Shown piece after piece: positions 11,280-26,736 of a stretch of DNA of 32,000 nucleotides. The stretch is from an uncultured Chloroflexia bacterium (GTDB taxonomy: Bacteria > Chloroflexota > Anaerolineae > JAAYZQ01). Under the pieces are notes generated by a model. The model searched no databases. It saw only the letters and a list, made by a program, of their open reading frames with translations, and was not told the DNA's origin. The DNA lies in assembly GCA_963749455.1 (NCBI GenBank), contig CAVVMX010000006.1, positions 125,769 through 157,768 of the forward strand. Reading direction: 5' to 3'. How positions within the stretch are numbered: position 1 is the stretch's first letter; each line of letters begins with the position of its first letter. Position numbers and translations under genes: made by a program.

Positions 11280-11294
11280 CAGCCGAAAACCTGC

Positions 11295-11330
11295 CCGGCC
11301 CAGCACTCAGCCCATTGGGTGCTGGGCCGG
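11295..11330. repeat. Perfect 12-bp inverted repeat after tupA-like gene (possible transcript-end hairpin, no U-tract)
   Basis: CCGGCCCAGCAC (11295-11306), 12-nt loop, GTGCTGGGCCGG (11319-11330). Confidence 0.7.
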
Positions 11331-11412
11331 CAACTACAAAAGATCCTTCGCCGTCGGCTTGCAGGTTCTGATCAACCCGGCTCCGTAGAACGCAAATCGG
11401 ACTCCCCACCAT

Positions 11413-11441
11413 TTGACAGCTTCACAGTTCTTTGCTAGAAT
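11413..11441 (+). promoter_or_regulatory. Sigma70-type promoter of the yhf-like operon
   Basis: TTGACA (11413-11418), 17-nt spacer, TAGAAT (11436-11441). Confidence 0.85.
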
Positions 11442-11460
11442 ATACAATGTACTATATTCT
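11437..11460. promoter_or_regulatory. Candidate operator overlapping -10/+1
   Basis: Perfect inverted repeat AGAATATA-caatgtac-TATATTCT centred just downstream of the -10. Confidence 0.65.
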
Positions 11461-11490
11461 GCATTTTGTATGACCGGTCGAGCGAGGGCG

Positions 11491-12429
11491 ATGATTACAG
11501 ATCTGCTCCTGCCTCTTGTGTCGAAACAGGGAGTGGCCGTCATGAAACTGGCCACACTGCTCCTCATTCACCAGCGAGGAGACCGAATCCAGCCTGTCCA
11601 ACAGTACGCTGAGGAGCTGGGAACAGGAGTGGGCACGATCCAGGCAGCCCTGGCCTACCTCCAGGAAATCGGGGCGGTCGACCTCGAGAGCCGGGGGCAC
11701 CTGGGTACATTCATCCGTGAGATCGACTACCCTCTCATCTGGTCCCTCACCGGACAAAACCAGATCGTGGGTGGCATGCCGCTGCCCTATTCCCGCCGAT
11801 ATGAGGGTCTGGCCACCGCACTCCACGAGGCATTTCGCCGGGCCGAAATCACCCTGAACCTCGTCTACACGCGCGGCGCCCTGAACCGCCTGCGTGCCTT
11901 GGAGGGAGGCAAGTTCGACTTTATCGTCCTATCGCGTTTCGCGCTGAGCAACGCTATCGAGCGAGAGTTGGCGGTCGAGGAAGTGCTGGGCCTCGGCGGC
12001 GAGTCTTACGTGGGGCAGCACGTTATTCTACTAAGAGACCGGGACCAGCAGGAGATCGTGGATGGAATGAGGGTTGGCATCGACCCGTCGTCCATCGATC
12101 AGGTCCTCCTGGCCAAGGAAGCCTGCCGTGGCAAGGACGTCGAGTTTGTCGAGGTTGGCTACATGAACCTGATGGCAGCTCTGGGCAAGGGACAGATCGA
12201 CGCCACCGTCTGGAATCAGGATGACTTTAGCACCTCGGCTCACCCATTCAAGGCGGTGCCCCTTGCGTTGCGCGACCTTGACCAGGCGCACGACAACACA
12301 GAGGCGGTCATTGCCGTGCAGAAGGGCAACCGGCTGGCCCTTCAAACCCTGAGGGTGATCATCGAACCGGAGACGATCCGCGACATCCAGCGGCAGGTGA
12401 TGGAAAACCGGCTCGTGCCGGCCTATTGA
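11491..12429 (+). CDS. yhfZ: YhfZ-like regulator: GntR-type N-terminus with a substrate-binding-like C-terminal domain
   Basis: ORF 11413..12429 (start revised to 11491). GDRIQPVQQYAEELGTGVGTIQAALAYLQEIGAVDLESRGHLGTFI; C-terminal VGIDPSSIDQVLL...EVGYMNLMAALGKGQIDATVWN. Confidence 0.8.
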   Translation: MITDLLLPLVSKQGVAVMKLATLLLIHQRGDRIQPVQQYAEELGTGVGTIQAALAYLQEIGAVDLESRGHLGTFIREIDYPLIWSLTGQNQIVGGMPLPYSRRYEGLATALHEAFRRAEITLNLVYTRGALNRLRALEGGKFDFIVLSRFALSNAIERELAVEEVLGLGGESYVGQHVILLRDRDQQEIVDGMRVGIDPSSIDQVLLAKEACRGKDVEFVEVGYMNLMAALGKGQIDATVWNQDDFSTSAHPFKAVPLALRDLDQAHDNTEAVIAVQKGNRLALQTLRVIIEPETIRDIQRQVMENRLVPAY

Positions 12430-12469
12430 AGGTCCAAGTCCGGACTTGTTGCTTCCGCAGAGGACAGAA

Positions 12470-13681
12470 ATGCGTGCATCGAGCCAGGCACCGAAACCCA
12501 GCAAAATCCTGCTACGCGCCCATGAGCTCGCGCCGGCGCTGGTCGACATCCGCCGCACGCTGCACCGCCACCCTGAGCTCGGCTTCGAAGAGCGCTGCAC
12601 CGCGGCCCTCGTCGCCTCCAAGTTGCACTCGCTGGGCATCCGTGTCGAGACGAACGTCGGTATAACGGGCGTGGTGGGTCACATCGGCACGGGGGGCCCT
12701 ATTGTCGCCCTGCGGGCCGACATGGACGCTCTCCCTATCCAAGAGCTGAACCAAACGCCGTATGCCTCTGAGGTGCCTGGGATCATGCACGCCTGTGGTC
12801 ACGACGCCCACACGGCCTGTTTGCTGGGGGCCGCCACCATCCTCCAGGAGATCAAGCTCGACGGACAGGTGCGCCTGATTTTCCAGCCCTCAGAAGAAGG
12901 CATGGACAAAGAGGGCAAGAGCGGGGCCATGCGCATGGTCGAGGAGGGGGTCGCGGACGGCGTGCAGGCCTTTTTCGCCCTGCACGTGGACAGCGACTAC
13001 CACTCCGGCACGCTGGCGTGCTCACCGGGCTATGTGCTGGCTGCCATGGACACCCTTGTCATACAGGTCATGGGTACGGCGGCACACGGTGCCCAGGCCT
13101 ATCTGGGGGTAGATGCAGTGCTGCTGGCATCCCAGGTAATCGGCGCGCTGCACACAGTGGTCTCGCGGCGCATTTCGCCCCTGGACAGCGGCGTCATATC
13201 GATCGGCCTGATCCACGGCGGGACAAAGGAGAACATTCTGGCCGAACAGGTAGAGCTGCGCGGCACGGTTCGCAGCTTCAAGCCCGAGGTGCGCCAGGCG
13301 CTGCTCCGCGAAATCGACCGCGTGTGTGGGATAACCCGTGCTGTGGGGGGCGACTATCGCCTCTCCATCTGGCACGGGTACCCCGCACTGCACAACGATC
13401 CGAGCCTGACGGCGTTTGCCGTGGAGGCTCTGACCGGCCTGATCGGAAGCGAGGCGCTACTTCCCCTGGAACCCGAGATGGGCTCCGAGGATTTCAGTTT
13501 CTTTGCGCAGCGGGCGCCGGCATGCTACATGTCGCTCGGCGTCCGGTCCCCAGGACAGCCCATGCGCCCGGCGCACCATCCCGGCTTTGACATTGACGAA
13601 TCGGCCCTGCCGCTGGGAGCCGCCAGCCTGGCCCACCTTGCCGTCGGCTACCTGAATGCTCGGCCGCACGAGGGACAGTAG
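12470..13681 (+). CDS. M20 family amidohydrolase/peptidase (IAA-amino acid hydrolase/hippuricase-like)
   Basis: IRRTLHRHPELGFEE, VALRADMDALPIQE, PGIMHACGHDAHTACLLGAATIL, LIFQPSEEG, EPEMGSEDFSFFAQRAP. Confidence 0.95.
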   Translation: MRASSQAPKPSKILLRAHELAPALVDIRRTLHRHPELGFEERCTAALVASKLHSLGIRVETNVGITGVVGHIGTGGPIVALRADMDALPIQELNQTPYASEVPGIMHACGHDAHTACLLGAATILQEIKLDGQVRLIFQPSEEGMDKEGKSGAMRMVEEGVADGVQAFFALHVDSDYHSGTLACSPGYVLAAMDTLVIQVMGTAAHGAQAYLGVDAVLLASQVIGALHTVVSRRISPLDSGVISIGLIHGGTKENILAEQVELRGTVRSFKPEVRQALLREIDRVCGITRAVGGDYRLSIWHGYPALHNDPSLTAFAVEALTGLIGSEALLPLEPEMGSEDFSFFAQRAPACYMSLGVRSPGQPMRPAHHPGFDIDESALPLGAASLAHLAVGYLNARPHEGQ

Positions 13682-13689
13682 AGGAAACC

Positions 13690-14103
13690 ATGGCCTTTGA
13701 GGAACGGTTCCGGCTTCTGATCGCGAGTGGGCAGGCCAGCGAGCGGACCGTCGCAGCTGCCCGCGCTGCCCTTGGGGAGGTGGAGGCGCACTACCAGATC
13801 CTTCTCTGCGAACAAGTGGGTGCCTCGCTGGCCACGCACATCGCGGTCACCATGAAGCGCCTGTTGGACGGGGAAGCGTTGACCCAGGCCCCCGACACCG
13901 TCTGGAGCGAGCTCACGGCCTGGCCCGAGGAGGTGGCGCTGGCTACCTCCGTCGTGCACGGGCTGTGCAGAAGGCTGCGCCACTCCATCGCGCGGGACGA
14001 GGTCGGGTTTATCGCCCTGCATCTGTGCCGGATCCGGGCTGCAACCCTGCTGGCAGCCGAGGAGCCCGGCACAGCGGGGACTGCCGGTGAGGTGAGTGCA
14101 TGA
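13690..14103 (+). CDS. yhfY: Small PRD-domain protein (YhfY-like)
   Basis: THIAVTMKRLLDGEAL and DEVGFIALHLCRIR match the PRD pattern with regulatory histidines; position between yhfZ and yhfU. Confidence 0.75.
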   Translation: MAFEERFRLLIASGQASERTVAAARAALGEVEAHYQILLCEQVGASLATHIAVTMKRLLDGEALTQAPDTVWSELTAWPEEVALATSVVHGLCRRLRHSIARDEVGFIALHLCRIRAATLLAAEEPGTAGTAGEVSA

Positions 14104-14474
14104 TACGCATCAACGTCGGGGGACTGGCAGCCAAAGAGATCGCTGCCCTGGCTGCTCAGGTCGGAGGAGGCCAGGTCGAGGTGCAGGTAGGGACCGACAT
14201 TGTCGGGGCGCAGCAGGTCGCCATGGGAATGGCCGACTACTATTTCGGCGCCTGCGCCACCGGCCGGGGAGGTGCTCTGGCGATGGCCATGGCCCTCCTG
14301 GGCGTTTCGAAATGCTTCACTGCCAGCACGACCGGCCGGCCGCCCAAGGAGCAAGAGGTCCGGGAAGCCGTCGCTGCCGGCAAGAAGGCGTTCGGTTTCA
14401 CCACCGATCACGTGGATGTGGCTGTGCCTATGATCGTCAAGGCCATCCTGGCCGGGCGCCGCCACGAGGCCTAG
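14100..14474 (+). CDS. yhfU: DUF2620 family, YhfU-like glycine-rich small protein
   Basis: MIRINVGGLAAKEIAALAAQVGGGQVEVQVGTDIVGAQQVAMGMADYYFGACATGRGGALAMAMALLG; 4-nt ATGA overlap with upstream gene; synteny. Confidence 0.8.
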   Translation: MIRINVGGLAAKEIAALAAQVGGGQVEVQVGTDIVGAQQVAMGMADYYFGACATGRGGALAMAMALLGVSKCFTASTTGRPPKEQEVREAVAAGKKAFGFTTDHVDVAVPMIVKAILAGRRHEA

Positions 14475-14519
14475 CGCGCTGCGCCGGCGTCTGCGGGCCG
14501 AGTTCGAGGGGACCAAGCA

Positions 14520-15803
14520 ATGTCATCGACAACCATCGTGCTGATGGCTGTTGCGGGTGCCATAGGGGCCGCCCTGGCCAATCGGGGCGTTGCCGTGTTC
14601 CACGACGGACTCCGCGCCCTCGTACCAGAGCTGCTCGAGGGTCGCCTGCAGCGTAAGGAGTTTGGCGCCCTCGCCTCTAGCATGAGCTTTGGGTTGCTCG
14701 TCGGCTATGGCCTGCCGTTCTCGGTCGTGTCGGGGGTGGTCCTCTATCACAGCCTTTGGCTCGGAACAGATATCATCGGCGCACGGTTTCCCGGCCCGAC
14801 TGGATCTGGCCGGCAAGATCACAGCAGGGAGCTTCTAGGTCTGATCGGCGCCGCGCTCGCCGGTTGTCTCTACGGGGCCCTGCTGGCGGCAGGGCTGGCG
14901 GGCGTGCGCTGGCTCTTCTCGCACCTCCCCATCCCGATCCAGGGTTCCCTTCAGGAGATGGGGGCGCCGATCGTCCTGGCCTTTGCCATGTTCCCTGCCG
15001 TTGCTGTGGCCTGCCAGCACGGCGCCAGACACGGGGTGCTTGTGTTCCTTCTTACGCTGTTGGCACGGCATATCGCGAGCAGCCTGGGATTGGCCGGGCC
15101 CGACGCCTGGGCACTGGGCGTGGGCATGGCTACGTTGGTGATCTATGCCCTTCTGGCTCAGAAGCGCAGCCGGCCGGCCCAGGGCATGGTGCCGATTCCG
15201 ACCCAGGGCGCGGCTCGAATCCGCCGCCATCTGCCCTCGATCGTGCTGCTGGGTGCGGTCTATGGCCTAATCTGCAGCCAGGCGGTCATGATGGAGAGCC
15301 CACAGTCACTGCTTGCCCTCGGCCAGGGGGATCGGGCGACCGCGATCGGCGTCACAATCGCGCGTGGGTTGTGCTTTACCCCTCAAAAGACGATGTCGGC
15401 TGCGGCTACTGGCGTGTTCGCCCTCGACGGCTTTGGCTTTGTGGCGGCGGCAGGATTGCTCGCCCCAAATGCGTGGAGCGCGGCTCTGGCCGGAGCGATC
15501 GTCATGGGCCTCGAGGCGCTGAGCTTGGTCGCACTGTCTCGGCTGCTGTGCCGCTGGCCGGTTCTGTCCCAGACGGCCGACGCCATGCGCACCGCCATGA
15601 CTAAACTGCTCGAGATCGCCTCGATGGTGGGCGGTATGCTTGCGGCGAACAGCCTGAAGCCTGGCCTGGGGTTTGCAGCGGTGGCCGGCCTGTATGCGCT
15701 CAACGAGGTGTCCGGCTTGCCCATCACGCGTGCTGCCGCCGGCCCGGTGGCCATCCTCCTGTTTGGCCTGGGGCTTAACCTGTTCGCATGGATCACGGGA
15801 TAG
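14520..15803 (+). CDS. yhfT: YhfT-like multi-pass membrane protein (putative transporter)
   Basis: ALANRGVAVFHDGLRALVPELLEG and about 10 or more hydrophobic segments; syntenic between yhfU and yhfS. Confidence 0.85.
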   Translation: MSSTTIVLMAVAGAIGAALANRGVAVFHDGLRALVPELLEGRLQRKEFGALASSMSFGLLVGYGLPFSVVSGVVLYHSLWLGTDIIGARFPGPTGSGRQDHSRELLGLIGAALAGCLYGALLAAGLAGVRWLFSHLPIPIQGSLQEMGAPIVLAFAMFPAVAVACQHGARHGVLVFLLTLLARHIASSLGLAGPDAWALGVGMATLVIYALLAQKRSRPAQGMVPIPTQGAARIRRHLPSIVLLGAVYGLICSQAVMMESPQSLLALGQGDRATAIGVTIARGLCFTPQKTMSAAATGVFALDGFGFVAAAGLLAPNAWSAALAGAIVMGLEALSLVALSRLLCRWPVLSQTADAMRTAMTKLLEIASMVGGMLAANSLKPGLGFAAVAGLYALNEVSGLPITRAAAGPVAILLFGLGLNLFAWITG

Positions 15804-15805
15804 CG

Positions 15806-16900
15806 ATGCAGACCTACCCTTTAGAGCAATTGGATCTGGACGGCGCGATGGAGCTGCAATTCCGCTTGGTGGAGGCCATCGCGCGCCACTTTGACGGGCA
15901 TGCGATCCTCGAGGCCGGGGATTACGGACTGTGGGCAGACACGGGGCGGCCCCACCATACCGCGCGGGTCGAGGCTACGCTCGCCGACCTGTTCGGCGCC
16001 GAGGCCGCCTGCCTGGTTCGTGGGGCAGGCACGGGGGCAGTTCGCTCCACCATCATGGCTGCCGTGAAGCCGGGGCAGGAGCTGCTGCTGCATCAGGCGC
16101 CTCTCTACCCCACGACCCACGTGACTCTCGAAGCCATGGGCCTGCGGCCGGTGTTCGTCGATCTGAACGACCCGAGCGCGCTCGGAGAGTTCCCGCCCAC
16201 CGTGTCGTGCGCGCTGCTGCAACACACTCGCCAGCGGATGGACGACCGATACCAGTTGGCCGAAGTGATCCGGGCGCTGAAGGCGAGCCGCCCGAATCTG
16301 ATGGTGATCGTGGACGATAACTATGCGGCCATGCGCGTGCCCAAGATCGGGATCGAATTGGGTGCTGACGTCTCCACCTTCTCGCTGTTCAAGCTACTCG
16401 GCCCCGAAGGGGTGGGGTGCGTGCTGGCGGGTCACGATCTGGCTGCCAAGATCCACAGGCAGAACTACTCGGGAGGCACCCAAGTCCAGGGGGTCGAAGC
16501 TCTGGAAGCGCTGCGGGCCCTGACCTACGCGCCGGTGGCCTGGGCCGTTCAGAGCCAAGTTGTCGAGGAAGTGACGCGCCGCCTGAACTCTGGCGAGGTG
16601 GTGGGCGTGGAGCAGGCCTACGTGGCCAACGCCCAGTCACGGGTCATCCTGGTCAAGCTCGACAAACCGCTTGCCAAAGGGGTGGTGGCCGCCAGTGTTC
16701 AGTTTGGAGCTGCCGACCGTCCGGTCGGGGCGGAATCGCGTTACGAGGTCGCTCCGCTCTTCTACCGCATCTCGGGCACGTTCCGTGCAGAGAATCCCGA
16801 CCTGGCGGAACGGATGATCCGGATCAATCCGATGCGAGCCGGAGCCAATCTCGTCATCAGGATCCTCGACAAAGCCTTGGAGGCGTGTCAGGGAGGATGA
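15806..16900 (+). CDS. yhfS: YhfS-like PLP-dependent aminotransferase-fold enzyme
   Basis: FGAEAACLVRGAGTGAVRSTIMAAVKPGQELLLHQAPLYPTTHVTLEAMGL; VDDNYAAMRVPKIGIELGADVSTFSLFKLLGPEGVG; RVSGTFR-like region ISGTFRAENPDLAERMIRINP. Confidence 0.9.
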   Translation: MQTYPLEQLDLDGAMELQFRLVEAIARHFDGHAILEAGDYGLWADTGRPHHTARVEATLADLFGAEAACLVRGAGTGAVRSTIMAAVKPGQELLLHQAPLYPTTHVTLEAMGLRPVFVDLNDPSALGEFPPTVSCALLQHTRQRMDDRYQLAEVIRALKASRPNLMVIVDDNYAAMRVPKIGIELGADVSTFSLFKLLGPEGVGCVLAGHDLAAKIHRQNYSGGTQVQGVEALEALRALTYAPVAWAVQSQVVEEVTRRLNSGEVVGVEQAYVANAQSRVILVKLDKPLAKGVVAASVQFGAADRPVGAESRYEVAPLFYRISGTFRAENPDLAERMIRINPMRAGANLVIRILDKALEACQGG

Positions 16901-16901
16901 G

Positions 16902-18083
16902 ATGTTCCTAGACGTTACACTCCAACGAAATCCCAGGCTGATCGAAACCGCGCTGGCATTTCACCGCGCGGGGATCATCCCTCCCAATTGCTTCGTCATC
17001 GACTCGGACATTGTGGCAGAGAACGCCGCACTGCTCCACCAGGCCGCACATCGGGCCGGGCTGGACCTGTACTTCACTACCAAGCAGATCGGGTTCAACC
17101 CTCTGCTCGCCCGGCGCATCGTCGAGGCGGGCATCTCCAGAGCCATTGCCATCGATGCCCGGGAGGTCTCGGTCCTGGCGCGCAACCAGATCCCCATCGG
17201 TCATGTCGGTCACCTGGTGCAGATTCCCTATCACCTGATCGGCCCGGTGCTGAGACTGGAGCCGGAAGTTGTCACGGTCTTTAGCGTAGACAAGGCGAAG
17301 CAGATCTCCCAGGTGGCCGTGCAGGAGCAGCGTCAGGTCCGGCTCTTGCTCCGCGTCGTTGCTGACGGCGATTTCGTCTATCCCGGCCAGGCAGGCGGGC
17401 TGCAACTGGACACCCTGGTGTCACAGGCCATGCTCATTCAAGAGCTGCCCAACCTCCGGATCGTCGGCGTCACCTCCTACCCTTGTCTTCAGCTCGACGC
17501 AGCAACCCAGACTCTGATACCCACTCAGAACCTGTCCACCATCCTTCAGGCGGCGCGTGCTCTGCAAGAAGAGTTGGGCATTGTCGTCGAGCAGATCAAC
17601 GCGCCGGGAAACACGTGCGTTGGCGTCATGGACCTTTTGGCTCAGGCGGGCGCCACCCACGGTGAGCCCGGCCATGCCCTGACCGGGACTACATACCTGC
17701 ATACGCGCACCGATCAGGCAGAAAGACCGGCCATGGTCTATGTGAGCGAGGTCTCGCACCTCCACGGGAACCAGGCCCATCTCTTCGGCGGCGGAACATA
17801 TCGCCGGGCGGGGGTTCACAACGCCCTGGTCGGATCTGGCGCTGACAGTCTGGCGCGCACCGAGATTCTGCCGCTCGATCCCACCGCCATAGATTATTAC
17901 GTCGCGTTGGCGCTGCCTTCTGATCATACCGTGCAGGTGGGAGACACTGTGATCCTTGCTTCGCGGGCACAGGTCTTTGTCAGCCGCAGCTACGTGGCGG
18001 TCGCCCAGGGGATTCAGGCCGGGCATCCTACCCTGGCAGGTCTGTTTGATTCCTGGGGCGGGGCTGTGGAGAGGGTCGTCTAG
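16902..18083 (+). CDS. yhfX: YhfX-like alanine-racemase-fold PLP enzyme
   Basis: FVIDSDIVAENAALLHQAAHRAGLDLYFTTKQIGFNPLLARRIVEAG; GATHGEPGHALTGTTYLH. Confidence 0.9.
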   Translation: MFLDVTLQRNPRLIETALAFHRAGIIPPNCFVIDSDIVAENAALLHQAAHRAGLDLYFTTKQIGFNPLLARRIVEAGISRAIAIDAREVSVLARNQIPIGHVGHLVQIPYHLIGPVLRLEPEVVTVFSVDKAKQISQVAVQEQRQVRLLLRVVADGDFVYPGQAGGLQLDTLVSQAMLIQELPNLRIVGVTSYPCLQLDAATQTLIPTQNLSTILQAARALQEELGIVVEQINAPGNTCVGVMDLLAQAGATHGEPGHALTGTTYLHTRTDQAERPAMVYVSEVSHLHGNQAHLFGGGTYRRAGVHNALVGSGADSLARTEILPLDPTAIDYYVALALPSDHTVQVGDTVILASRAQVFVSRSYVAVAQGIQAGHPTLAGLFDSWGGAVERVV

Positions 18084-19294
18084 TGTCCCCTCGAGTGATC
18101 CTGCTGGTTATCGACGCGTTGGGCATTGGCGAGATGCCCGACGTCGCGCGGAACAGGCCCCAGGATGCCGGTGCCCATACGCTGGGCAGTGTCCTGCAAG
18201 ATGTGGGCCGCCTGGATCTTCCTGCCATGGCCGAGCTAGGCCTGGGCTGCGTCGATCCCTTGCCCGGCCTCGACCTCCCTGCGTCGGAGCCGCTCGCCAG
18301 CTACGGCCGATGCCGGCTTGCCCACACAGGTGCCGACAGTTACCTGGGACACCAGGAGATCATGGGTGCGATCCCCAAGCCCCCTGTGCTGACCCTCATG
18401 GCGCAGGCAGCCGGCCTGCTGGAGCAGCAGCTCGCTGCACACGGTCATATAGTCAAAAGGCCGCTGGATGGAAAGGGCCTGTTACTGGTCGATGAAGCGC
18501 TCGTGATCGGCGACAACCTGGAGGCCGATCCTGGACTGAATATCAACCTGACCGTCGCCACCGACGAGATCGACTTTGGCCGGGCCCTCGCGATCGGCAA
18601 GATCGTCCGGGAGCTGGTGAGCGTCGCCCGTGTGATCGTCTTTGGAGGGCCCGGCATTACGACCGGCAGCATCCTGGACCACGTGGAGCAGCGAGACAAT
18701 GGACAGCTCGGCGTCAACAGCCCTGCTCTGGGGGTCTACGATGAGCATCTGTTTGTCCAGCACCTGGGCTATGGGGTCGATCCCGAGCGGCAGGCAGCAT
18801 CTATCCTATGCCGGGCTGGCATCCCGGTGGTTCTGCTCGGCAAAATGGCCGATCTGGTCGTCTGCCCCTGCGCCCGCCAGGATTCGGTGGTCCCCACGCC
18901 GCAGCTGATGCGCACGTTGCGCGATTGCTACCGGAGTGCGCTTGGAGGCCTGATCGCAGCCACGGTGCAGGAAACCGACCTGGCCGCTCACGAAGGCGAC
19001 TGTGCGCGATTTGCCCACGTGCTTGGCGACGTAGACCGTGGCTTGCAGGCGCTGCTGCCGGACATGGCCGCAGGCGATCTTCTGATCCTCTGCGCTGACC
19101 ATGGCAACGATCCGCGTGTGAACGTCGGGCTCCACACCAGGGAAGAGACGCCCCTGCTGATCTACCAGAAAGATAGGGCCGCTGTGCCCTTGGGAGTTCG
19201 CAGCACGCTCGCGGATATTGGCGCGACTATCACCCATATGTTCAGTGCACCGCCGACACAGGATGGTGTCACCCTATTGGATCGGAGGAATTGA
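18083..19294 (+). CDS. yhfW: YhfW-like phosphopentomutase/metalloenzyme-superfamily protein
   Basis: GTG start overlapping upstream TAG; VILLVIDALGIGEMPDV ... ADSYLGHQEIMG ... LLILCADHGNDP ... HTREETPLLIY, alkaline-phosphatase superfamily metal sites. Confidence 0.9.
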   Translation: MSPRVILLVIDALGIGEMPDVARNRPQDAGAHTLGSVLQDVGRLDLPAMAELGLGCVDPLPGLDLPASEPLASYGRCRLAHTGADSYLGHQEIMGAIPKPPVLTLMAQAAGLLEQQLAAHGHIVKRPLDGKGLLLVDEALVIGDNLEADPGLNINLTVATDEIDFGRALAIGKIVRELVSVARVIVFGGPGITTGSILDHVEQRDNGQLGVNSPALGVYDEHLFVQHLGYGVDPERQAASILCRAGIPVVLLGKMADLVVCPCARQDSVVPTPQLMRTLRDCYRSALGGLIAATVQETDLAAHEGDCARFAHVLGDVDRGLQALLPDMAAGDLLILCADHGNDPRVNVGLHTREETPLLIYQKDRAAVPLGVRSTLADIGATITHMFSAPPTQDGVTLLDRRN

Positions 19295-20700
19295 TGCAAC
19301 TGGAGCTTCTCACGCCGGAGGATGTGGCGAGTGTTCATGCCGCCTCTATCCGCCTACTCGCCGAGATGGGGGTTCGATTCGGCAGCCGAAAGGCGCTGGA
19401 GATCCTGGCTGCTGCGGGCGCCCGCGTCGACCTGGACCGGAAAATGGTCTGGATGCCGGAGACGCTCGTCGAGGACGCCTTGCGTACCACCTCCGGCCAT
19501 TTCCGGCTGTGGAGCCGGGATGGCAGCCAGGTAGTGGACCTGCAGGATGGCCAGATCCGGGGCCATAACGTCGGCGGGTGCGTGCGGATCTTTGATTTCC
19601 TCAAGGGCGAGGCGCGAGACGCAACGCAGGGCGACCTAGTGCAGCTGACTGTTCTCCTGGATGCCCTCGAGAATATCCACGTCTGCCGGCCCATGGTCTA
19701 TCCCCGCGACTTTCCCACCATGCTGCGCGACATCTTTATTCTCGGCACCATGCTCCGGCACACCACCAAGCCGTACGGAGTCACCGCCTACAGCCCGGAG
19801 AACCTCGTCTATATTCTCGAGCTGGCCGGCGTCATCGCCGGCAACCTGGAGAATCTGAGGAGCAGGCCGTTCCTCTGGGGCAGCGTCTGCCCAGACAGCC
19901 CTCTCTCTTACTCTGAGAGCACCTCGAACATCCTGATGCGATACGCCGAGCTTGGGTTGCCGGTTGCCATTGCGCCCTGCCCAATCTGCGGGGGAACAAG
20001 CCCCGTCACCCTGGCCGGAACGCTGGCCCAGCTGAATGCCGAGTTCCTGGCCGGCCTGGTCCTGGTGCAGGTCATCCAGCCTGGAATCGACGCCAAGTAC
20101 ACCGGCCGGCCCATACCCATGGACATGAGGACCGGCAATGCCACATTTGGCGCCGTTGAGGCGGGCATGATGTCCGCCGGAATTGTCCAGTTGGCCAGGC
20201 GCTACCGAGTCTGTTCTGACGTGTACGGCCTGGGTACTCGCTCCAGAGCGCTGGACGAACAGTCGGCGTACGAGAAAGCGATAAACGGCCTGCTGGTGGC
20301 GCTGGCCGGGGCCGATCTGGTAGCGGCTGCGGGGCTGCTTGAGGATGCGCTTACTTCTAGCGCAGAGCAGCTGGTGATCGACAATGACATCCTGGGTATG
20401 ATTTTCCGCGCTGTGCGCGGAATTGGGGTCACGCCCGAAAGCCTGGCCGTCGAAACGATCATGAAGGCGGGCATCGGCGGCAGTTTTCTGACCGAGCCGC
20501 ACACCCTGGCCCATATGCGAAAAGAGCTGTACCTGCCCAAGCTTGCCTCACGCCCAGCTTCCCAGGCGCTCCTGGAGGCAGCTGCTGACAGGGTCCAGAC
20601 CATTCTGGCGTCCCACCAACCCAAGCCGCTCGAGGCGGCGATGGTCGCCGAGATCGAGCGCATCCTGGACCGGGCGACCCGAACGCTGAGGGCACAGTGA
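19294..20700 (+). CDS. MttB/trimethylamine-methyltransferase family protein (non-pyrrolysine type, by absence of in-frame amber)
   Basis: VHAASIRLLAEMGVRFGS; RGHNVGG-like GHNVGGCVRIFD; YGVTAYSPENL; PIAIAP-like VAIAPCPICGGTSPVTLAGTLAQLNAEFLAGLVLVQ; SDVYGLGTRSRALDEQSAYEKAINGLLVALAGADLV. ATG overlaps yhfW stop. Confidence 0.9.
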   Translation: MQLELLTPEDVASVHAASIRLLAEMGVRFGSRKALEILAAAGARVDLDRKMVWMPETLVEDALRTTSGHFRLWSRDGSQVVDLQDGQIRGHNVGGCVRIFDFLKGEARDATQGDLVQLTVLLDALENIHVCRPMVYPRDFPTMLRDIFILGTMLRHTTKPYGVTAYSPENLVYILELAGVIAGNLENLRSRPFLWGSVCPDSPLSYSESTSNILMRYAELGLPVAIAPCPICGGTSPVTLAGTLAQLNAEFLAGLVLVQVIQPGIDAKYTGRPIPMDMRTGNATFGAVEAGMMSAGIVQLARRYRVCSDVYGLGTRSRALDEQSAYEKAINGLLVALAGADLVAAAGLLEDALTSSAEQLVIDNDILGMIFRAVRGIGVTPESLAVETIMKAGIGGSFLTEPHTLAHMRKELYLPKLASRPASQALLEAAADRVQTILASHQPKPLEAAMVAEIERILDRATRTLRAQ

Positions 20701-21023
20701 GCGACTTGGACAACAGCGACATCTGTGGACCTCGATGGTCACCCGTGACGGCGACCGAGATCACCGTCACCCTCTCCAGCAGGGCGAGCCTGCACGCCCG
20801 TCCGGCAGCGCTGCTGGTACAAGTGGCGAATGGATTTGCCTGTGATGTGCGCGTGTTCAAGGCCGGTGGTGGCTCGGCGAGTGGCAAGAGCATCCTGGGG
20901 ATCCTGAGTCTGGACGTAGGCCCCAGAGACACGATCACCGTTCGAACGGAAGGAGACGATGCTCAGCAGGCGCTCGCTCGCATCCGGGCGCTTGTGGAGA
21001 GCGATTTCGTAGAAGTGGAGTGA
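20697..21023 (+). CDS. ptsH: HPr-family phosphocarrier
   Basis: SRASLHARPAALLVQVA (phosphorylatable His in LHARPAA) and SASGKSILGILSLDVGPRDTI; GTG start overlaps upstream TGA. Confidence 0.9.
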   Translation: MSDLDNSDICGPRWSPVTATEITVTLSSRASLHARPAALLVQVANGFACDVRVFKAGGGSASGKSILGILSLDVGPRDTITVRTEGDDAQQALARIRALVESDFVEVE

Positions 21024-21182
21024 GGAAGGTTCCGGAAAGGGAAACGATCTGTCGAAATGGAGGTGAAAGGCGGCATATTCCAATGCGGGGCCCGCATGAC
21101 CTTGGCCAGGTCAGGTCGGCAGAATTCGGAAGCCCGCAGAAGCTTCCACTCTTGGTAACCAAACAATAAAGGAGAGAGGATC

Positions 21183-22868
21183 ATGAAACGCTTGAACCTA
21201 GTCGTATGCGTGTTGATGGTCGCCACCTTGGCCCTTAGCGCCTGCGGGGCGACGCCTACACCTCAGGTCATCAAGGAGACGGTGCAGGTCAAGGAGACGG
21301 TGCAGGTCAAGGAGACCGTCGAGGTCAAAGAGACCGTGCAGGTCAAAGAGACGGTGCAGGTCAAGGAGACCGTCGAGGTGGTCGTGACCGCCACCCCCGA
21401 GCCGACGCCTGCCCCGAAGAAGGGGGGGGTGCTGATCGCCGCGTATGCAACCGACGCCAAAGGCGTGGACCCGCACACGGCCACCAACTTCTCTGCCTTC
21501 CGCATCCTGGAGCTGACGTACGACTCACTGCTGGCATTCGACAAAGATCTGGCTGTGATTCCGAACCTTGCCGAGTCGTGGAGCTGGTCGGATGATGGGC
21601 TCGCGCTCACCCTGAAACTGCGCCAGGACGTCAAGTTCCATAGCGGCAACCCGCTCACATCAGCGGATGTCAAGTTCTCATTCGAGCGGATCCTGGACGA
21701 AGCTACCGGGGCCGCCGCGCGCTCCTACTTTACCAATATCACCAGCATCGATACGCCCGATGACTATACCGTCGTTCTGCACCTTGCTGAGCCGCAGGTC
21801 TCCCTTCTGGCGGCTATGACGAACGCAAACTCGGCGATCGTGGACTCCAAGGCGGTTCAGGCCGGCGCGGACCCGACCAAGACCGAAGTCGGCTCGGGTC
21901 CATTCAAGCTGGAGAGCTGGGAGCCTGACGTCAAGCTGGTCCTTACTGCCAACGAGGACTACTGGATGCCCGGCCTGCCATACCTGGACGGCATCGAATT
22001 CCGGACGATTCCAGACGAGAGCTCTATCCTGGCTGCGCTGCGCACCAAGCAGATCGATTGGGGCATCATCGCCGACCCGCGGGTGGCTATTGCCGCCGGA
22101 GCGGCCGGCAGCACGCTGGTGATCGACCGGGCGCCCGCGCTGTCGTACCACGTGATGCAGCTCAACGACAAAAAGCCGATCTTCCAGGATGTGCGCGTGC
22201 GGCAGGCCCTGTCATGCGCCATCGACCGGCAGCAGGTTCTGGACACCGCCTCGCTCGGCGAAGGCCAGGTAATCGGTCCGGTGACACCCCCCTACTATCG
22301 CCCCACCGACGCGGAGAGCCTCTACTGCTACACCCAGGATCTGGAGAAGGCCAAGCAGCTGCTGGCGGAGGCCGGCGTGACCACCCTCAAGTTCGCGATG
22401 ATGGCCACCACCGAGGAAATGCCCGTGACCGTCGCCGAGGCGCAGAACATCCAGGCGCAGCTCACCCAGCTGGGTATCGAGACGACCATCGACACAGTCG
22501 AGCTGGGTGTCTTTGTGGACCGCTGGTTCGCGACGGACTTTGACGCCGTGCTCACCGAGAACGGCGGCAACCCCGATCCCGACGTGATGCTCTATCGCTA
22601 TTGGCACAGCACCGGTAACCTGAACTCCATCGCGACCTATAACGCGCCCGAGATCGACGAGCTGCTGACCCAGGGCCGCACCACGGCCGATCCCGAGCAG
22701 CGCAAGGCCATCTACGCCGACGTCTCTCAGAAGCTGACCGAGGCGGCGCCCTGGATCTGGCTGTACGTGGGATACCAGTACCGCGTGATGCAGCCCTACG
22801 TCACGGGCTATACTTCGCTGGCGAATGGCTCTGCCATGTACTTGCGCGAGACGTGGCTCAACAAGTAG
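21183..22868 (+). CDS. Peptide/nickel-type ABC transporter substrate-binding lipoprotein (SBP family 5)
   Basis: Lipobox LALSACG; LAESWSWSDDGLALTLKLRQDVKFHSGNPLTSADVKFSFERI; VRQALSCAIDRQQVL; RBS ggagag upstream. Confidence 0.95.
   Translation: MKRLNLVVCVLMVATLALSACGATPTPQVIKETVQVKETVQVKETVEVKETVQVKETVQVKETVEVVVTATPEPTPAPKKGGVLIAAYATDAKGVDPHTATNFSAFRILELTYDSLLAFDKDLAVIPNLAESWSWSDDGLALTLKLRQDVKFHSGNPLTSADVKFSFERILDEATGAAARSYFTNITSIDTPDDYTVVLHLAEPQVSLLAAMTNANSAIVDSKAVQAGADPTKTEVGSGPFKLESWEPDVKLVLTANEDYWMPGLPYLDGIEFRTIPDESSILAALRTKQIDWGIIADPRVAIAAGAAGSTLVIDRAPALSYHVMQLNDKKPIFQDVRVRQALSCAIDRQQVLDTASLGEGQVIGPVTPPYYRPTDAESLYCYTQDLEKAKQLLAEAGVTTLKFAMMATTEEMPVTVAEAQNIQAQLTQLGIETTIDTVELGVFVDRWFATDFDAVLTENGGNPDPDVMLYRYWHSTGNLNSIATYNAPEIDELLTQGRTTADPEQRKAIYADVSQKLTEAAPWIWLYVGYQYRVMQPYVTGYTSLANGSAMYLRETWLNK
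21273..21380 (+). repeat. Six tandem 18-nt units encoding KETV(Q/E)V in the lipoprotein linker
   Basis: aaggagacggtgcaggtc-type unit repeated six times with synonymous changes. Confidence 0.9.
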
Positions 22869-22880
22869 GATAGAAACTAC

Positions 22881-22924
22881 GGGAAGTGGTCGGCGGTCAA
22901 AATGCCAGCCGCCGTCCACTTCCC
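22881..22924 (+). promoter_or_regulatory. Intercistronic mRNA hairpin between SBP and permease genes
   Basis: GGGAAGTGG-tc-GGCGG ... CCGCC-gt-CCACTTCCC, no U-tract. Confidence 0.75.
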
Positions 22925-22945
22925 AACGCGCAGAGTGAGACGGTC

Positions 22946-23899
22946 ATGCAGAGTTTCCTGTCCCGGCGGCTGATCGCATTCATACCCACCCTGTTGGGCA
23001 TCACGATCATCATCTTTATCGTGATGCACCTCATCCCGGGTGATACCATCGATGCCATGATCGGCACCGAGTTCAAGCTGACCGAAGTGCAGGCGCAGGC
23101 CCTCCGCGAATACTTTGGGCTGGATAAACCGCTGCCCGAGCAGTATGCGCGCTGGCTCCTGGCCGCCGCGCGCGGCGATTTTGGTTACTCTGTCCGCAAG
23201 GGAGAGCCTGTGCTGCCGCTGATCCTGCGCCACTTTCCTCTCACCCTCGAATTGGCGGTTCTGGGCATGGCAGTCGCCCTATTGCTGGGCATCCCGCTGG
23301 GTGTGCTGTCGGCCGTCAAACGCGATTCGCTGATCGACCTGATCGGACGCCTCTTTGCGCTGATCGGGCTGGCCGTGCCCGCATTCTGGCTGGGCACGCT
23401 GATCATCCTCGTCCTATCGCTGCGTTTCAATATCATGCTCAATGCCGGAAACTATGTCGACCTGTTCGAGGACCCCGTGGGGAATCTAAAACAGATGCTC
23501 TTTCCTGCTCTCGCCCTGGGCTTTGCGGCAAGCGCAGATGTGATGCGCACCATGCGCTCGGCCATGTTGGAGGAGCTGGGGCAAGACTATGCTCGAACGG
23601 CGCGCAGCAAGGGGTTGAGTGAGCGGGCGGTGATCTACAGACATTGCCTCAAGAATGCATTGATCCCCGTCATCACCATTGTTGGCCTTGAAACCGGCTA
23701 CCTTTTCGGCGGCGCCGTCATCGTCGAATCGGTCTTTGCCCTGCCGGGCGTCGGACGGCTCCTTCTGGATGCCATCGGCCAGCGAGACTATGCCGTGGTT
23801 CAGGGGACCATCTTGCTGATCGCCTTCAGTTTTGTCTTGGTGAACCTGTTGACCGATCTGGCCTATGCTTGGGTCAACCCGCGGATTCGCTATGATTGA
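22946..23899 (+). CDS. Peptide/nickel-type ABC transporter permease (DppB-like)
   Basis: MQSFLSRRLIAFIPTLLGITIIIFIVMHLIPGD; QDYARTARSKGLSERAVIYRHCLKNALIPVITIVGLETGYLFGGAVIVE. Confidence 0.95.
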   Translation: MQSFLSRRLIAFIPTLLGITIIIFIVMHLIPGDTIDAMIGTEFKLTEVQAQALREYFGLDKPLPEQYARWLLAAARGDFGYSVRKGEPVLPLILRHFPLTLELAVLGMAVALLLGIPLGVLSAVKRDSLIDLIGRLFALIGLAVPAFWLGTLIILVLSLRFNIMLNAGNYVDLFEDPVGNLKQMLFPALALGFAASADVMRTMRSAMLEELGQDYARTARSKGLSERAVIYRHCLKNALIPVITIVGLETGYLFGGAVIVESVFALPGVGRLLLDAIGQRDYAVVQGTILLIAFSFVLVNLLTDLAYAWVNPRIRYD

Positions 23900-24782
23900 G
23901 AGCGGCAGCGCGCGTCTTCGTGTTCCTCAATCGGGAGCTCTCCACTCGCGGCGTGCCCGCGGCGTTCTGCGGCTGTTCCGCAGCGGCAGCACCGTGATCG
24001 GATTGATCCTGGTCACCATCTATGTCGTCGTGGCGCTCTTTGCTTCGACGCTGGACGCCTACTCGCCGATCGAGCAGCATCCAAAGGACCGACTACAGCC
24101 ACCCTCCGCCAAGTACCTGCTGGGCACAGACGAGTTCGGGCGTGATATCCTAAGCCGGCTGATGCACGGCGCTACCAACTCCTTGCGTGTTGCCGTCCTG
24201 TCGGTGGCGATTGCGTGCCTGGTGGGAGCCAGCCTCGGCATATTGGCAGGCTACGCCGGAGGGCTGGTGGACAACGTCATCATGCGCGTGATGGACCTTT
24301 TCTTCGCCTTCCCTGCCATGCTGCTGGCGCTTTCAATTGTGACTGCCCTGGGACCGGGGATGAAGAACACCATCCTGGCCATTGCACTCGTCTACATGCC
24401 GATTTTCGCGCGTGTGGCACGCGGCCCCGTCCTTGCCGTCAAGACCATGGAGTTTGTGGATGCGGCGCGGTCAATCGGCGCGCAGCACTTACGCATCGTG
24501 GGGCGTCACATCCTGCCAAACATCACCGCCCCAATCCTCGTTCAGGTCAGCCTTGCACTGTCCTGGGCCATGCTCACCGAGGCCGGCCTCAGTTTCCTGG
24601 GGCTGGGGACCATCCCTCCAACGCCGTCGTGGGGAAGCATGTTGGCTGACAGCCGCAGACTGATGGAGCTCGCCCCCTGGACCGCCGTCTTTCCCGGTCT
24701 GGCGATCATGGTCGGCGTGTTGGGCTTTAACTTGTTGGGCGATGGCCTGCGCGACGTGCTCGACCCGCATCTACGGAACTAG
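23892..24782 (+). CDS. Peptide/nickel-type ABC transporter permease (DppC-like)
   Basis: HPKDRLQPPSAKYLLGTDEFGRDILSRLMHGATNSLRVAV; FVDAARSIGAQHLRIVGRHILPNITAPILVQ. Start overlaps the upstream stop. Confidence 0.95.
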   Translation: MIESGSARLRVPQSGALHSRRARGVLRLFRSGSTVIGLILVTIYVVVALFASTLDAYSPIEQHPKDRLQPPSAKYLLGTDEFGRDILSRLMHGATNSLRVAVLSVAIACLVGASLGILAGYAGGLVDNVIMRVMDLFFAFPAMLLALSIVTALGPGMKNTILAIALVYMPIFARVARGPVLAVKTMEFVDAARSIGAQHLRIVGRHILPNITAPILVQVSLALSWAMLTEAGLSFLGLGTIPPTPSWGSMLADSRRLMELAPWTAVFPGLAIMVGVLGFNLLGDGLRDVLDPHLRN

Positions 24783-24853
24783 CCCAGGCAACCCAATGGC
24801 GCAGCTCTCTTGCAGTTCTCGGAGATCGGTCGCCGGTGCAGATGGAGGAAGGC

Positions 24854-26569
24854 ATGCGGTGGCTTGAAGGTATCTTTGCCTCGGAGGGCGTGGCGATAGG
24901 CGCTGTCTGGATCTATCGCCCCCGTGCTATCGTAGCCGTTGAGCGCACAGTAGCCGCCCCGGAAGCCGAGTCCGCGCGCCTGGGGGCCGCTCTGGCGCGC
25001 GCCAAGGAAGAGTTGGATGCGCTGTACCACAATACCGCCGAGGTAGTGGGCGTCAGGACCGCCGGCATCTTCCAGGCACAACGGTTGATTCTGGAGGATC
25101 CGGAGCTACTCCACGCTGTCGAAGCTCATCTCCGCGCGGGAGCGAATGCGGAAACCGCGCTCGCCACAGAGGTCGAGCGGTTTGCTTCCATGCTGGCCGG
25201 CCTACAAGAACCCACCCTTCGGCAGCGTGCCGCCGACGTGCGGGATGTGGGCCAGCGCGTGCTGCACGTGTTGGCAGGAGCGGAGAGGATCTTGTCGGCT
25301 GCCCCTGGCGCGCCTGCCATCGTCGTCGCCCAAGATCTGAACCCCTCTGAGGTGGCGCAGTTGAACAGGTCTGAGACGCTTGGCATAGCCCTCGCGCGGG
25401 GCGGAAGCACTTCTCACGCGGCTATCCTGGCACGCGGCCTGGGGTTTCCGACCGTCGTCGGCCTCGGCGACCGGCTGCTCGACGCGGTTCAGAACGGCAT
25501 GTTCGTCATCCTTGACGGGCACGCAGGGCTTCTGATCGTGAGTCCGGAAGAAGCCCTGTTGCAGGACTATGGGACACGGCGGGCGCTCTGGCGTTCCGCG
25601 TGCGAAGCGGCGCGTGCCACTGCCCTGGACCCGGCGATCACACTGGACGGCCGCCGGGTAGAGGTTGTAGCCAACCTGGGCGATGGCACGTCGGCACAAG
25701 CCGCGCTGGCCTTCGGCGCGGAAGGGGTGGGCGTGCTGCGCACCGAGTTTCTCTTCCTCCAGCGCGGGGCGATGCCCGACGAGGAGGAGCAGTACATCGC
25801 CTACCGCGCCCTCGCCACGGCGATGGGCTCGCGGCCGCTGATTATCCGGACCCTGGACATTGGGGGTGACAAGGACATTCCCTATCTGGACTTGGGCCAG
25901 GAGCGCAATCCGTTCCTGGGCTACCGCGCGATCCGCATCTCGCTCACCCATCCCGAAATGCTCAAGACGCAGTTGCGAGCGATCCTCCGCGCGGCAGAGG
26001 GCTGCAATGTCAAAGTGATGTTTCCCATGATCGCGACACTCGACGAACTGCGCGCTGCGCGGCGTCTCCTGGAAGAAGCGCGGACGGAGCTGTGCGCGCG
26101 TCTCGGGGCATCTGTTCCCGGCATCGAGGTGGGGATCATGGTCGAAGTACCTTCGGCTGCCGTCTGCGCACCTGTCTTGGCGCGCGAAGTAGACTTTGTC
26201 AGCCTGGGTACGAACGATCTAATCCAGTATACGCTGGCCGCAGACCGCACGAATGAGCGTGTGCGGACCCTCTACGATCCCCTCCAACCGGCTGTCCTCC
26301 ACCTGGTCAAGAAGGTGATCGACGATGCGCATGCCGCCGGCATCTGGGCCGGCGTGTGCGGCGAGATGGCCGCCGACCTCGATGCTGTGCCGCTCCTGCT
26401 TGGCATGGGCCTGGATGAGTTCAGCATGAACGCGGCCACGATCCCCGAGGTCAAGGCCCTGATCCGTTCCCTCCGCTCTGATGCGATGCAAGACCTGGTT
26501 GCGCGCGCTCTGAAATTGCCCACCGCAGTGGAGATCCGTGCGCTGGTCCGCGGGCGGTCTGCGGTCTGA
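24854..26569 (+). CDS. ptsI: PTS Enzyme I (phosphoenolpyruvate-protein phosphotransferase)
   Basis: Active-site ALARGGSTSHAAILARGLGFPTVVGLG; GVGVLRTEFLFL; RTLDIGGDKDIPYL; NPFLGYRAIR; FVSLGTNDLIQYTLAADR; GVCGEMAAD. Start revised to ATG 24854 (gaggaagg RBS). Confidence 0.95.
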   Translation: MRWLEGIFASEGVAIGAVWIYRPRAIVAVERTVAAPEAESARLGAALARAKEELDALYHNTAEVVGVRTAGIFQAQRLILEDPELLHAVEAHLRAGANAETALATEVERFASMLAGLQEPTLRQRAADVRDVGQRVLHVLAGAERILSAAPGAPAIVVAQDLNPSEVAQLNRSETLGIALARGGSTSHAAILARGLGFPTVVGLGDRLLDAVQNGMFVILDGHAGLLIVSPEEALLQDYGTRRALWRSACEAARATALDPAITLDGRRVEVVANLGDGTSAQAALAFGAEGVGVLRTEFLFLQRGAMPDEEEQYIAYRALATAMGSRPLIIRTLDIGGDKDIPYLDLGQERNPFLGYRAIRISLTHPEMLKTQLRAILRAAEGCNVKVMFPMIATLDELRAARRLLEEARTELCARLGASVPGIEVGIMVEVPSAAVCAPVLAREVDFVSLGTNDLIQYTLAADRTNERVRTLYDPLQPAVLHLVKKVIDDAHAAGIWAGVCGEMAADLDAVPLLLGMGLDEFSMNAATIPEVKALIRSLRSDAMQDLVARALKLPTAVEIRALVRGRSAV

Positions 26570-26736
26570 CACCCGCTTCTGTTCGACACCGGCCTTCATC
26601 TCGACGACGGGTTTGCACATGCGCCCGGACGATCGAGTTCTGGGCCGCGCCTCTAGACATCCGCGTCGGACCTGCAGCGGCGATTTGACGAACCGGTCAA
26701 CAGCCGCTACACTGTGCGCGGCAAGATGGGGTGTGG

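Follow-up and report, generated by a model that had tools for sequence, protein, structure and literature searches.

An expanded, recurrent yhf-type operon in an uncultured Chloroflexia bacterium and its possible role in phosphotransferase-linked catabolism of an N-methylated amino compound

The stretch of DNA analysed here (hereafter the window, 32,000 nucleotides) comes from an uncultured Chloroflexia bacterium (GenBank assembly GCA_963749455.1, contig CAVVMX010000006.1, positions 125,769 to 157,768), and positions 11491-26569 are filled by 14 intact plus-strand genes that form an expanded version of the yhf operon known from Escherichia coli. The gene order is yhfZ, M20D amidohydrolase, yhfY, yhfU, yhfT, yhfS, yhfX, yhfW, an MttB-like gene, HPr, a solute-binding protein gene, dppB, dppC and the Enzyme I gene (Table 1). 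Families were called by Pfam and NCBIfam profile searches, E. coli K-12 was compared by BLASTP, and php was searched for by tblastn. All 14 proteins were assigned to families by profile search, which bore out the identities given in an initial annotation made from the letters alone, and the 14 open reading frames (ORFs) showed a third-position G+C bias of coding type. We tentatively read this gene set as a catabolic operon linked to the phosphotransferase system (PTS) and directed at an N-acylated or peptide-linked, N-methylated amino compound, a reading to which we give somewhat less than even weight. Among the related loci compared below, L023 and L026 lie on one contig (JAGVRI010000006.1 of GCA_018606645.1), L001, L024, L032, L035 and one JGI contig are metagenomic, and L003-L005 belong to Anaerolineae; the closest relatives that carry a name are Chloroflexota and Anaerolineae.

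Table 1. Genes and other features of the expanded yhf-type operon, in window coordinates
Feature	Position	Strand	Basis and remarks
GC-rich hairpin, perfect 12 bp, 12-nt loop, arms CCGGCCCAGCAC / GTGCTGGGCCGG	11295..11330	+	Read from sequence; directly 3' of upstream gene
Sigma-70-type promoter TTGACA-17 nt-TAGAAT, extended -10 TG	11413..11441	+	11/12 consensus positions
yhfZ, 312 aa, regulator: HTH_41 + YhfZ_C (binding-protein-like)	11491..12429	+	NF041241, PF14503/PF14502
M20D amidohydrolase (N-acyl-amino-acid / carboxypeptidase class)	12446..13681	+	TIGR01891; start uncertain (TTG 12446)
yhfY-type PRD-only protein, 137 aa	13690..14103	+	PF00874, 29 bits vs cut-off 23
yhfU (DUF2620), 124 aa, RpiB-like alpha/beta fold	14100..14474	+	PF10941, E = 9e-38
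yhfT, polytopic membrane protein, 427 aa	14520..15803	+	PF10797, E = 5e-100
yhfS, fold-type I pyridoxal phosphate (PLP) enzyme	15806..16900	+	PF22475 (YhfS-like_C) + Cys_Met_Meta_PP
yhfX, fold-type III (alanine-racemase-like) PLP enzyme	16902..18083	+	PF21279 (YhfX-like_C) + PF01168
yhfW, phosphopentomutase-like metalloenzyme, alkaline-phosphatase superfamily	18083..19294	+	PRK12383, PF01676
MttB-superfamily methyltransferase homologue without pyrrolysine	19294..20700	+	PF06253, 283 bits, profile positions 30-495 of 500
HPr phosphocarrier	20697..21023	+	PF00381, E = 1e-24; TIGR01003
Conserved spacer, 159 nt, HPr to binding-protein gene	21024..21182	+	Aligned with L001 (conserved) and L023 (partly)
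Family-5 (Dpp/Opp-type) solute-binding lipoprotein	21183..22868	+	PF00496, E = 6e-96
DppB-type permease	22946..23899	+	PF19300 + PF00528; ATG 22946 fits domain start, mechanical ORF from 22886
DppC-type permease	23865..24782	+	PF12911 + PF00528
Enzyme I (PtsI), 571 aa, three domains (N-terminal, mobile His, PEP-binding), no GAF	24854..26569	+	PF05524, PF00391, PF02896

The 14 genes look like one transcription unit, as the initial annotation had argued, because they lie on a single strand with tight junctions, follow one strong promoter and are not enriched in terminator-like sites. Seven junctions in all have overlapping or abutting stop and start codons, with overlaps at 14100/14103, 18083, 19294, 20697/20700 and 23865-23899, a 3-nt gap at 15803/15806 and a 1-nt gap at 16900/16902. 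Wider gaps separate yhfU from yhfT (45 nt), HPr from the binding-protein gene (159 nt) and dppC from ptsI (53-71 nt). The promoter scan returned 7 sites against 2.5 expected in shuffled sequence, and the site at 11413-11441 scored best and is the sole strong plus-strand promoter-like site ahead of the operon. Its -35 box coincides with the TTG at 11413, from which a mechanical ORF call would start yhfZ; the start at 11491, as initially annotated, is correct and gives the same 312-aa length as in the L001 orthologue. Terminator-like sites were not in excess over shuffled sequence, and none fell in an intergenic gap. The hairpin upstream of the promoter has no T tract and hence was not listed by the terminator scan; the upstream transcription unit probably ends here. 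The long spacer between HPr and the binding-protein gene contains a palindrome, TGACCTTGGCCAGGTCA, at 21097-21113 (+), whose counterpart in L023 is TGATCCTGGCCAGATCA (arms TGATC...GATCA), both arms having changed together, and it may carry an operator or an internal promoter. A riboswitch or other structured RNA was considered for this spacer and rejected, with no Rfam match and an RNA fold z-score of -1.09.

The core of the operon is the yhf set. Of the seven E. coli yhf matches claimed initially, six (YhfZ, YhfU, YhfT, YhfS, YhfX and YhfW) proved to be clear orthologues with 31-50% identity, whereas YhfY had no BLASTP similarity to E. coli YhfY and was placed there because of its PRD-only architecture, its position and its conserved histidine. 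YhfZ scored 350 bits against the NF041241 YhfZ_full equivalog (cut-off 260) and is 32% identical to its E. coli counterpart. For YhfS (50% identity) the ATG at 15806 aligns with Met1 of the E. coli protein, 15788 being an alternative ORF start, and the top match in the PDB was E. coli YhfS itself (4J8L, 355 bits); likewise YhfX (41% identity) matched E. coli YhfX best (4KBX, 306 bits). YhfW (42% identity) reached 451 bits with PRK12383, and its nearest PDB entry was a phosphopentomutase (95 bits). YhfU and YhfT are 36% and 31% identical to the E. coli proteins. In an alignment of 12 homologues, YhfY His50, the first PRD histidine, was invariant, and His111 was kept in all but the E. coli protein. 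The E. coli K-12 operon yhfZ-yhfY-yhfX-yhfW-php-yhfU-yhfT-yhfS (b3376-b3383) thus has seven of its eight gene families in common with the window, with the same YhfU/YhfT pairing and the same PRD-only protein beside YhfZ, but the window has the order Z-Y-U-T-S-X-W, no php and seven extra genes. RefSeq still labels the E. coli yhf genes as putative or uncharacterised, and a search of the accessible literature, which also covered DUF2620, PF10797, Php and the SFCGS cassette discussed below, found no functional study of yhf.

The neighbourhood survey showed that the expanded arrangement is a recurrent variant of a known cassette and not an accident of one contig, because its order recurs in independent, diverged contigs; the proximity of MttB, HPr and Enzyme I genes reported initially is accordingly not unique to this contig. 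In L001 (82% identical) the window order was kept up to the contig end, which lies inside the binding-protein gene. L023/L026 showed the whole window order through Enzyme I plus a phosphotriesterase (PTE, php) gene between the PRD gene and yhfU, at a considerable distance from the window (52% identity for YhfT, 62% for Enzyme I). The order in L024, L032, L035 and the JGI contig was YhfZ-M20-PRD-PTE-U-T-S-X-W-MttB-binding protein; the sequence of L024 and L035 breaks off inside the second permease gene and that of the JGI contig shortly after the binding-protein gene, so that the Enzyme I region lies beyond these ends. Loci L003-L005 had Z-Y-U-T-S-X-W-MttB-corrinoid protein, with M20, Dpp, HPr and Enzyme I genes absent, and the loci of Bacillota and Atopobiaceae had the yhf core only, some with php. 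Judging from this distribution, the expanded variant is probably specific to Chloroflexota.

These data also bear on whether M20, MttB, HPr, Dpp and Enzyme I are merely chance neighbours, functionally unrelated to yhf. Such a view would account for the absence of HPr, Enzyme I, M20 and Dpp genes from the yhf clusters of Anaerolineae and Bacillota, and it could draw on base composition, since the operon (11001-27000) has a G+C content of 60-66%, compared with about 65% for the window and 68-71% for the flanks (2001-7000 and 27001-31000), a possible mosaic. The difference of about 5 percentage points could reflect horizontal acquisition; a scan of the ORFs, tRNA genes and repeats for mobile-element borders found no long terminal or flanking repeats, no tRNA genes and, among the ORFs covered, no integrase-like ones. 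The survey nevertheless disfavours chance, as contigs whose proteins have diverged to 52-67% identity retain the same order, yhfW and mttB, and likewise mttB and HPr, are joined by overlapping stop and start codons, the M20 gene lies inside the yhf set between yhfZ and yhfY, and the yhf-linked MttB proteins form a conserved subgroup of their own (see below). We consider a chance neighbourhood very unlikely.

Searching the whole window by tblastn with E. coli Php and the L023 PTE as queries gave no php-like phosphotriesterase gene, in agreement with the initial annotation. Php was likewise not found in L001, L003-L005 and L007-L014 by tblastn, or in L014 and L021 by ORF annotation, and because it is absent from the window and from many relatives it is not a universal part of the cassette. 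The further proposal that the M20 enzyme takes over the hydrolytic role of php did not hold. M20 and PTE/php genes occur together in five relatives (L023, L024, L032, L035 and the JGI contig), and the bare seven-gene core occurs with neither of them in two cultured Bacillota, Hungatella hathewayi DSM 13479 and Maledivibacter halophilus, so M20 was rejected as a stand-in for php.

The M20D enzyme is read here as part of a feeder module that includes the importer genes. It scored 364 bits with TIGR01891 (cut-off 154) and contained both PF01546 (Peptidase_M20) and PF07687 (M20_dimer), and the CpsA and DoeB2 equivalogs scored under their cut-offs. The best PDB matches were ILL2 (1XMB), 4EWT and YxeP (1YSJ), and the nearest class was that of N-acyl-amino-acid hydrolases. 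Of the DppABC-like ATP-binding cassette (ABC) transporter named initially, the binding protein and two permeases were recovered; ATPase genes were not found in the operon, and this is what sets it apart from the Dpp/Opp importers with which it shares the family-5 binding protein, DppB and DppC. The ABC_tran matches in the window come from flanking genes of the ECF and molybdate types, and L026 is likewise without Dpp ATPase genes. The best PDB match of the binding protein was the agropinic-acid-binding protein AgaA (6HLX, 176 bits), a modest similarity, and proteins that bind peptides or haem came next. In relatives it ranks within the top two or three operon proteins for conservation, with 94% identity in L001, 83% in L023 and 67-72% at other loci. 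M20 and binding-protein genes co-occurred in every expanded-type locus reaching that far, and permease genes were present wherever the contig continues (L023, L024, L032 and L035). This co-occurrence is compatible with an amide-linked precursor that is taken up and hydrolysed. Within the binding-protein gene, six tandem 18-nt units at 21253-21396 (+) encode (K-E-T-V-Q/E-V)x6, a linker after the lipoprotein signal.

The MttB homologue points to the second chemical feature of the presumed substrate. It aligned end to end with pyrrolysine-containing MttB (7XCL, 236 bits) and with MtgB (200 bits), and it scored 415 bits with TIGR02369, under the cut-off of 525. Its ORF has no in-frame UAG, and glycine occupies the pyrrolysine position of 7XCL. 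In MtgB, the residues Y97, R312, H348 and F356 hold glycine betaine, as shown by mutagenesis and a ligand-bound structure (PMC13080624). In our alignment, which carries a two-residue numbering offset, these positions correspond to G, D, a gap and A, and a role as a glycine-betaine or trimethylamine enzyme was rejected because of the active-site residues. The gene follows yhfW in nine of nine Chloroflexota loci, and the nine yhf-linked copies, which are 55-87% identical to the window protein (MtgB and MttB, 30-33%), are identical at five active-site positions that differ from both MtgB and MttB. The yhf-linked MttB proteins, as judged from these alignments, form a distinct conserved subgroup, which presumably has a substrate of its own. 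Compared with the corrinoid-dependent quaternary-amine systems (MttB/MttC, MtgB/MtgC, MtcB, MtpB and MtyB), the window protein shares the full-length TIM-barrel fold (PF06253) and differs in its glycine for pyrrolysine, its replaced betaine residues and the lack of partner proteins in the window, where neither a corrinoid:tetrahydrofolate methyltransferase nor an activase was found. In the three Anaerolineae loci (L003, L004 and L005) a 211-aa, two-domain B12-binding corrinoid protein is encoded directly after MttB, and because of this gene the MttB-like protein would appear to be a real corrinoid-dependent methyltransferase and the methyl-transfer step suggested initially is credible.

Corrinoid methyltransferases are reversible in principle, and PLP enzymes and mutases also occur in biosynthetic pathways, so the same enzymes might build an N-methylated amino compound, with the MttB homologue working in the methylating direction. 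We regard a biosynthetic operon as quite improbable, since an importer, a substrate-sensing regulator with a binding-protein-like domain, PTS proteins and an amidohydrolase are a catabolic make-up, and the characterised members of the MttB family are catabolic demethylases (PMC13080624).

The two general PTS proteins carry the expected motifs. HPr has His15 in LHARPA and Ser46 in GKSILG; its start is uncertain, either GTG 20697 or GTG 20745, the latter giving 92 aa as in L001. Enzyme I has the histidine motif GGSTSHAAILAR, and an identical 571-aa public protein exists (P0157). Outside yhf clusters, the closest Enzyme I (63% identity) is encoded together with an HPr (45%) in classical operons of the type EIIC-EIIB-EIIA ... 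HPr-EI on related metagenomic contigs, probably of Chloroflexota (L028-L030). As in the window, ptsH and ptsI are embedded there in a substrate-specific catabolic operon and do not form a ptsHI locus of their own, with the difference that the window has no EIIA, EIIB or EIIC and has YhfT, YhfU and YhfY in their place. Many other close Enzyme I matches were DhaM-HPr-Enzyme I fusions, several of them from named Chloroflexi. Because the nearest non-yhf Enzyme I and HPr stand in an EIIC-EIIB-EIIA operon, general PTS proteins in this group appear, from gene context, to travel with the PTS-dependent system that uses them. No recognisable kinase domain was found in any yhf cluster annotated here, and php has relatives that hydrolyse phosphorylated sugar lactones (review PMC10971088). 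Since no kinase was recognised, YhfW is phosphomutase-like, php relatives use such substrates, the PRD protein is universal and the PTS genes are placed as they are, an input of phosphoryl groups into the yhf system driven by phosphoenolpyruvate (PEP) is the most economical reading. In L008 (3745-5430; Candidatus Allofournierella, Bacillota), yhfZ and yhfX flank a further Enzyme I gene (40% identity), a second and independent instance of a yhf cluster that includes a general PTS gene.

How the phosphoryl group would be used depends on YhfU and YhfT. YhfT is presumed to be the permease of the yhf core; its AlphaFold model was all-helical, with a predicted local distance difference test (pLDDT) score of 83, and PF10797 was the sole Pfam family of its homologues even in a permissive scan (E <= 10). 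In the yhf clusters surveyed, YhfU always adjoined YhfT. Some Bacillota clusters (L018, L019 and L020) have two YhfT paralogues, and because L018 has a YhfU gene beside each copy, this gene context suggests that the two proteins function as a pair. For the YhfU model (pLDDT 95), Foldseek returned RpiB as the best match among solved structures (3S5P and 5IFZ), with template modelling (TM) scores of 0.58-0.67 and a probability of 1.0. The homologue alignment showed an invariant Cys52-x-Thr54 in the motif GACATGGGG, following strand 3, and hhalign aligned these residues with Cys66 and Thr68, the catalytic residues of E. coli RpiB, at a weak E of 0.01. By sequence profile YhfU does not belong to the RpiB/LacAB family, PF02502 being matched by one of 34 homologues at E = 0.19. 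YhfU shares the fold and the Cys-x-Thr of that family but is shorter (124 versus 149 aa), and in the alignment it has Gly-Gly where RpiB has its N-terminal Asp-His pair. PF14272 (Gly_rich_SFCGS) was weakly matched by 12 of the 34 homologues (best E = 0.001).

The last of these families leads to a second cassette of similar make-up. The SFCGS/DUF4312/DUF4311/DUF4310 cassette of Enterococcus, itself uncharacterised, includes a metallohydrolase, a DgaE-type PLP ammonia-lyase and a 2-keto-3-deoxy-6-phosphogluconate (KDPG)-type aldolase (PMC11934601, Fig. 2). It resembles the yhf system in combining a glycine-rich small protein with a conserved Cys, encoded beside membrane proteins, with a metal hydrolase, a PLP enzyme and no listed kinase, and it differs in having other membrane proteins and enzymes, with no MttB, M20 or Dpp reported and a weak sequence link. 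A PRD-only protein is also found with cassettes of the SFCGS type.

PRD domains are known targets of HPr, and the role of the PTS proteins could be confined to regulation. Enzyme I and HPr would then phosphorylate YhfY, which together with YhfZ would gate transcription as a form of catabolite control, YhfT would be an ordinary secondary carrier and YhfU a cytoplasmic RpiB-like isomerase, and the substrate would never be phosphorylated by the PTS. The invariant histidine of YhfY, the RpiB-like YhfU with its catalytic Cys-x-Thr motif, the absence of EIIA, EIIB and EIIC, and the fact that E. coli and most Bacillota yhf clusters are without general PTS genes are all in line with this explanation, which we hold to be possible, though on the unlikely side. 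It is harder to reconcile with the SFCGS cassette, since DgaE- and DgaF-type enzymes act on a phosphorylated substrate and no kinase is listed there. The annotated yhf clusters, too, are without a recognisable kinase despite the phosphomutase-like YhfW and the phosphorylated lactones used by php relatives (PMC10971088), and YhfU constantly adjoins YhfT, at both copies in L018, as a working pair would.

Considering these results, we have proposed a tentative model for the PTS-linked catabolic operon, in which the conserved seven-gene yhf core is combined with a feeder module (importer, M20D and MttB-like protein) and with general PTS proteins. The binding-protein system, with ATPases encoded elsewhere, would import an N-acylated or peptide-linked, N-methylated amino compound, whose amide bond would be cut by M20D. 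The N-methyl group would be moved by the MttB-like protein onto a corrinoid protein, encoded next door in Anaerolineae and presumably elsewhere in this organism. Enzyme I and HPr would hand on phosphoryl groups from PEP, which would reach the conserved YhfY histidine for control and, by a probable second route via YhfT and YhfU, the substrate. The phosphorylated intermediate would then pass to YhfW for a phosphoryl shift, to YhfU for an isomerase-like step and to the PLP enzymes for removal or rearrangement of the amino group. The route suggested initially, with import, deacylation, PLP and mutase steps and a methyl transfer, is plausible. In a bolder version, which we hold to be less likely than not, YhfT and YhfU, with YhfY perhaps as an EIIA-like relay, would constitute an unrecognised class of PTS permease, the DUF2620/SFCGS proteins would be a new type of EIIB with an RpiB-like fold, and the yhf-linked MttB proteins would be a new substrate class of corrinoid-dependent N-demethylases that feed this pathway; phosphate would go via Enzyme I and HPr to Cys52 of YhfU (or His50 of YhfY) and then to the incoming compound.

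Several points weigh against the catabolic PTS model. No EIIA, canonical EIIB or EIIC family was found among the 14 operon proteins by Pfam or NCBIfam; the YhfU model is far closer to the isomerase RpiB (TM 0.65) than to EIIB-Lac (TM 0.38), and the YhfT model matched no solved structure, EIIC included (best TM 0.25). The operon has no ABC ATPase gene (DppD/DppF), Enzyme I following directly after DppC, and it is not obvious why a single operon would need both YhfT and the ABC importer for uptake. No corrinoid protein was found in the window by tblastn. In L024, L032, L035 and the JGI contig the MttB and binding-protein genes have no HPr gene between them. The conserved 159-nt spacer ahead of the binding-protein gene may divide the operon into two transcripts. 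The literature search found no substrate on record for any yhf protein and no pathway assigned to the operon. Finally, the model goes beyond gene content, order, conservation, folds and motifs, which were observed, to a substrate class, a direction of flow and a phosphoryl route, which we infer.

The yhf/php operon is conserved in E. coli as well as in Bacillota, Actinomycetota and Chloroflexota, and solved structures exist for YhfS and YhfX. To this the Chloroflexota version adds four handles, namely the general PTS, the MttB-type enzyme, the amidohydrolase of N-acyl-amino-acid type and the well-conserved binding protein. The general PTS proteins point to PEP-driven phosphoryl transfer, the dedicated MttB-type enzyme with its corrinoid partner in Anaerolineae points to an N-methyl group on the substrate, and the binding protein could be used to fish for the ligand. 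If YhfT and YhfU do form a PTS permease, they would represent a new type of Enzyme II; if they do not, the yhf-linked MttB subgroup would still probably widen the substrate range of a superfamily that is important in quaternary-amine turnover.

A molybdenum cofactor (Moco) riboswitch lies at window positions 1149-1303 (+) (RF01055, 67.6 bits against a gathering score of 36), directly upstream of a gene set for an energy-coupling factor (ECF)-type transporter (1277-5078), past which follow a phosphodiesterase-like gene, Oxidored_molyb genes and a ModABC-like set. In the flanks, at least five genes are frame-split, with one Pfam domain across two frames (3646-4217, 8132-9563, 9594-10591 and about 27800-29640). 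ModB-, ModC- and ModA-like genes are affected, as are two genes for ECF ATPases, and since the 14 operon genes are intact, these are either true pseudogenes or errors of assembly limited to the flanks with their higher G+C. Three diverged copies (67-83% identity) of a segment of about 310 nt within Oxidored_molyb-like genes were seen at 7790-8103, 10579-10891 and 10966-11278 (+), and from their similarity they appear to be paralogous domains just upstream of the operon. Downstream, an 82-aa ORF at 26737-26985 (-) is convergent with ptsI; it has no Pfam match, a good ribosome-binding site and its own promoter-like site, TTGACA-17-TATTGT, at 27089-27061. Among the relatives, L003 (15627-16550) and L005 (18808-19593) encode a heliorhodopsin about 2.5 kb downstream of their yhf-MttB-corrinoid clusters, with a DegV gene in between.

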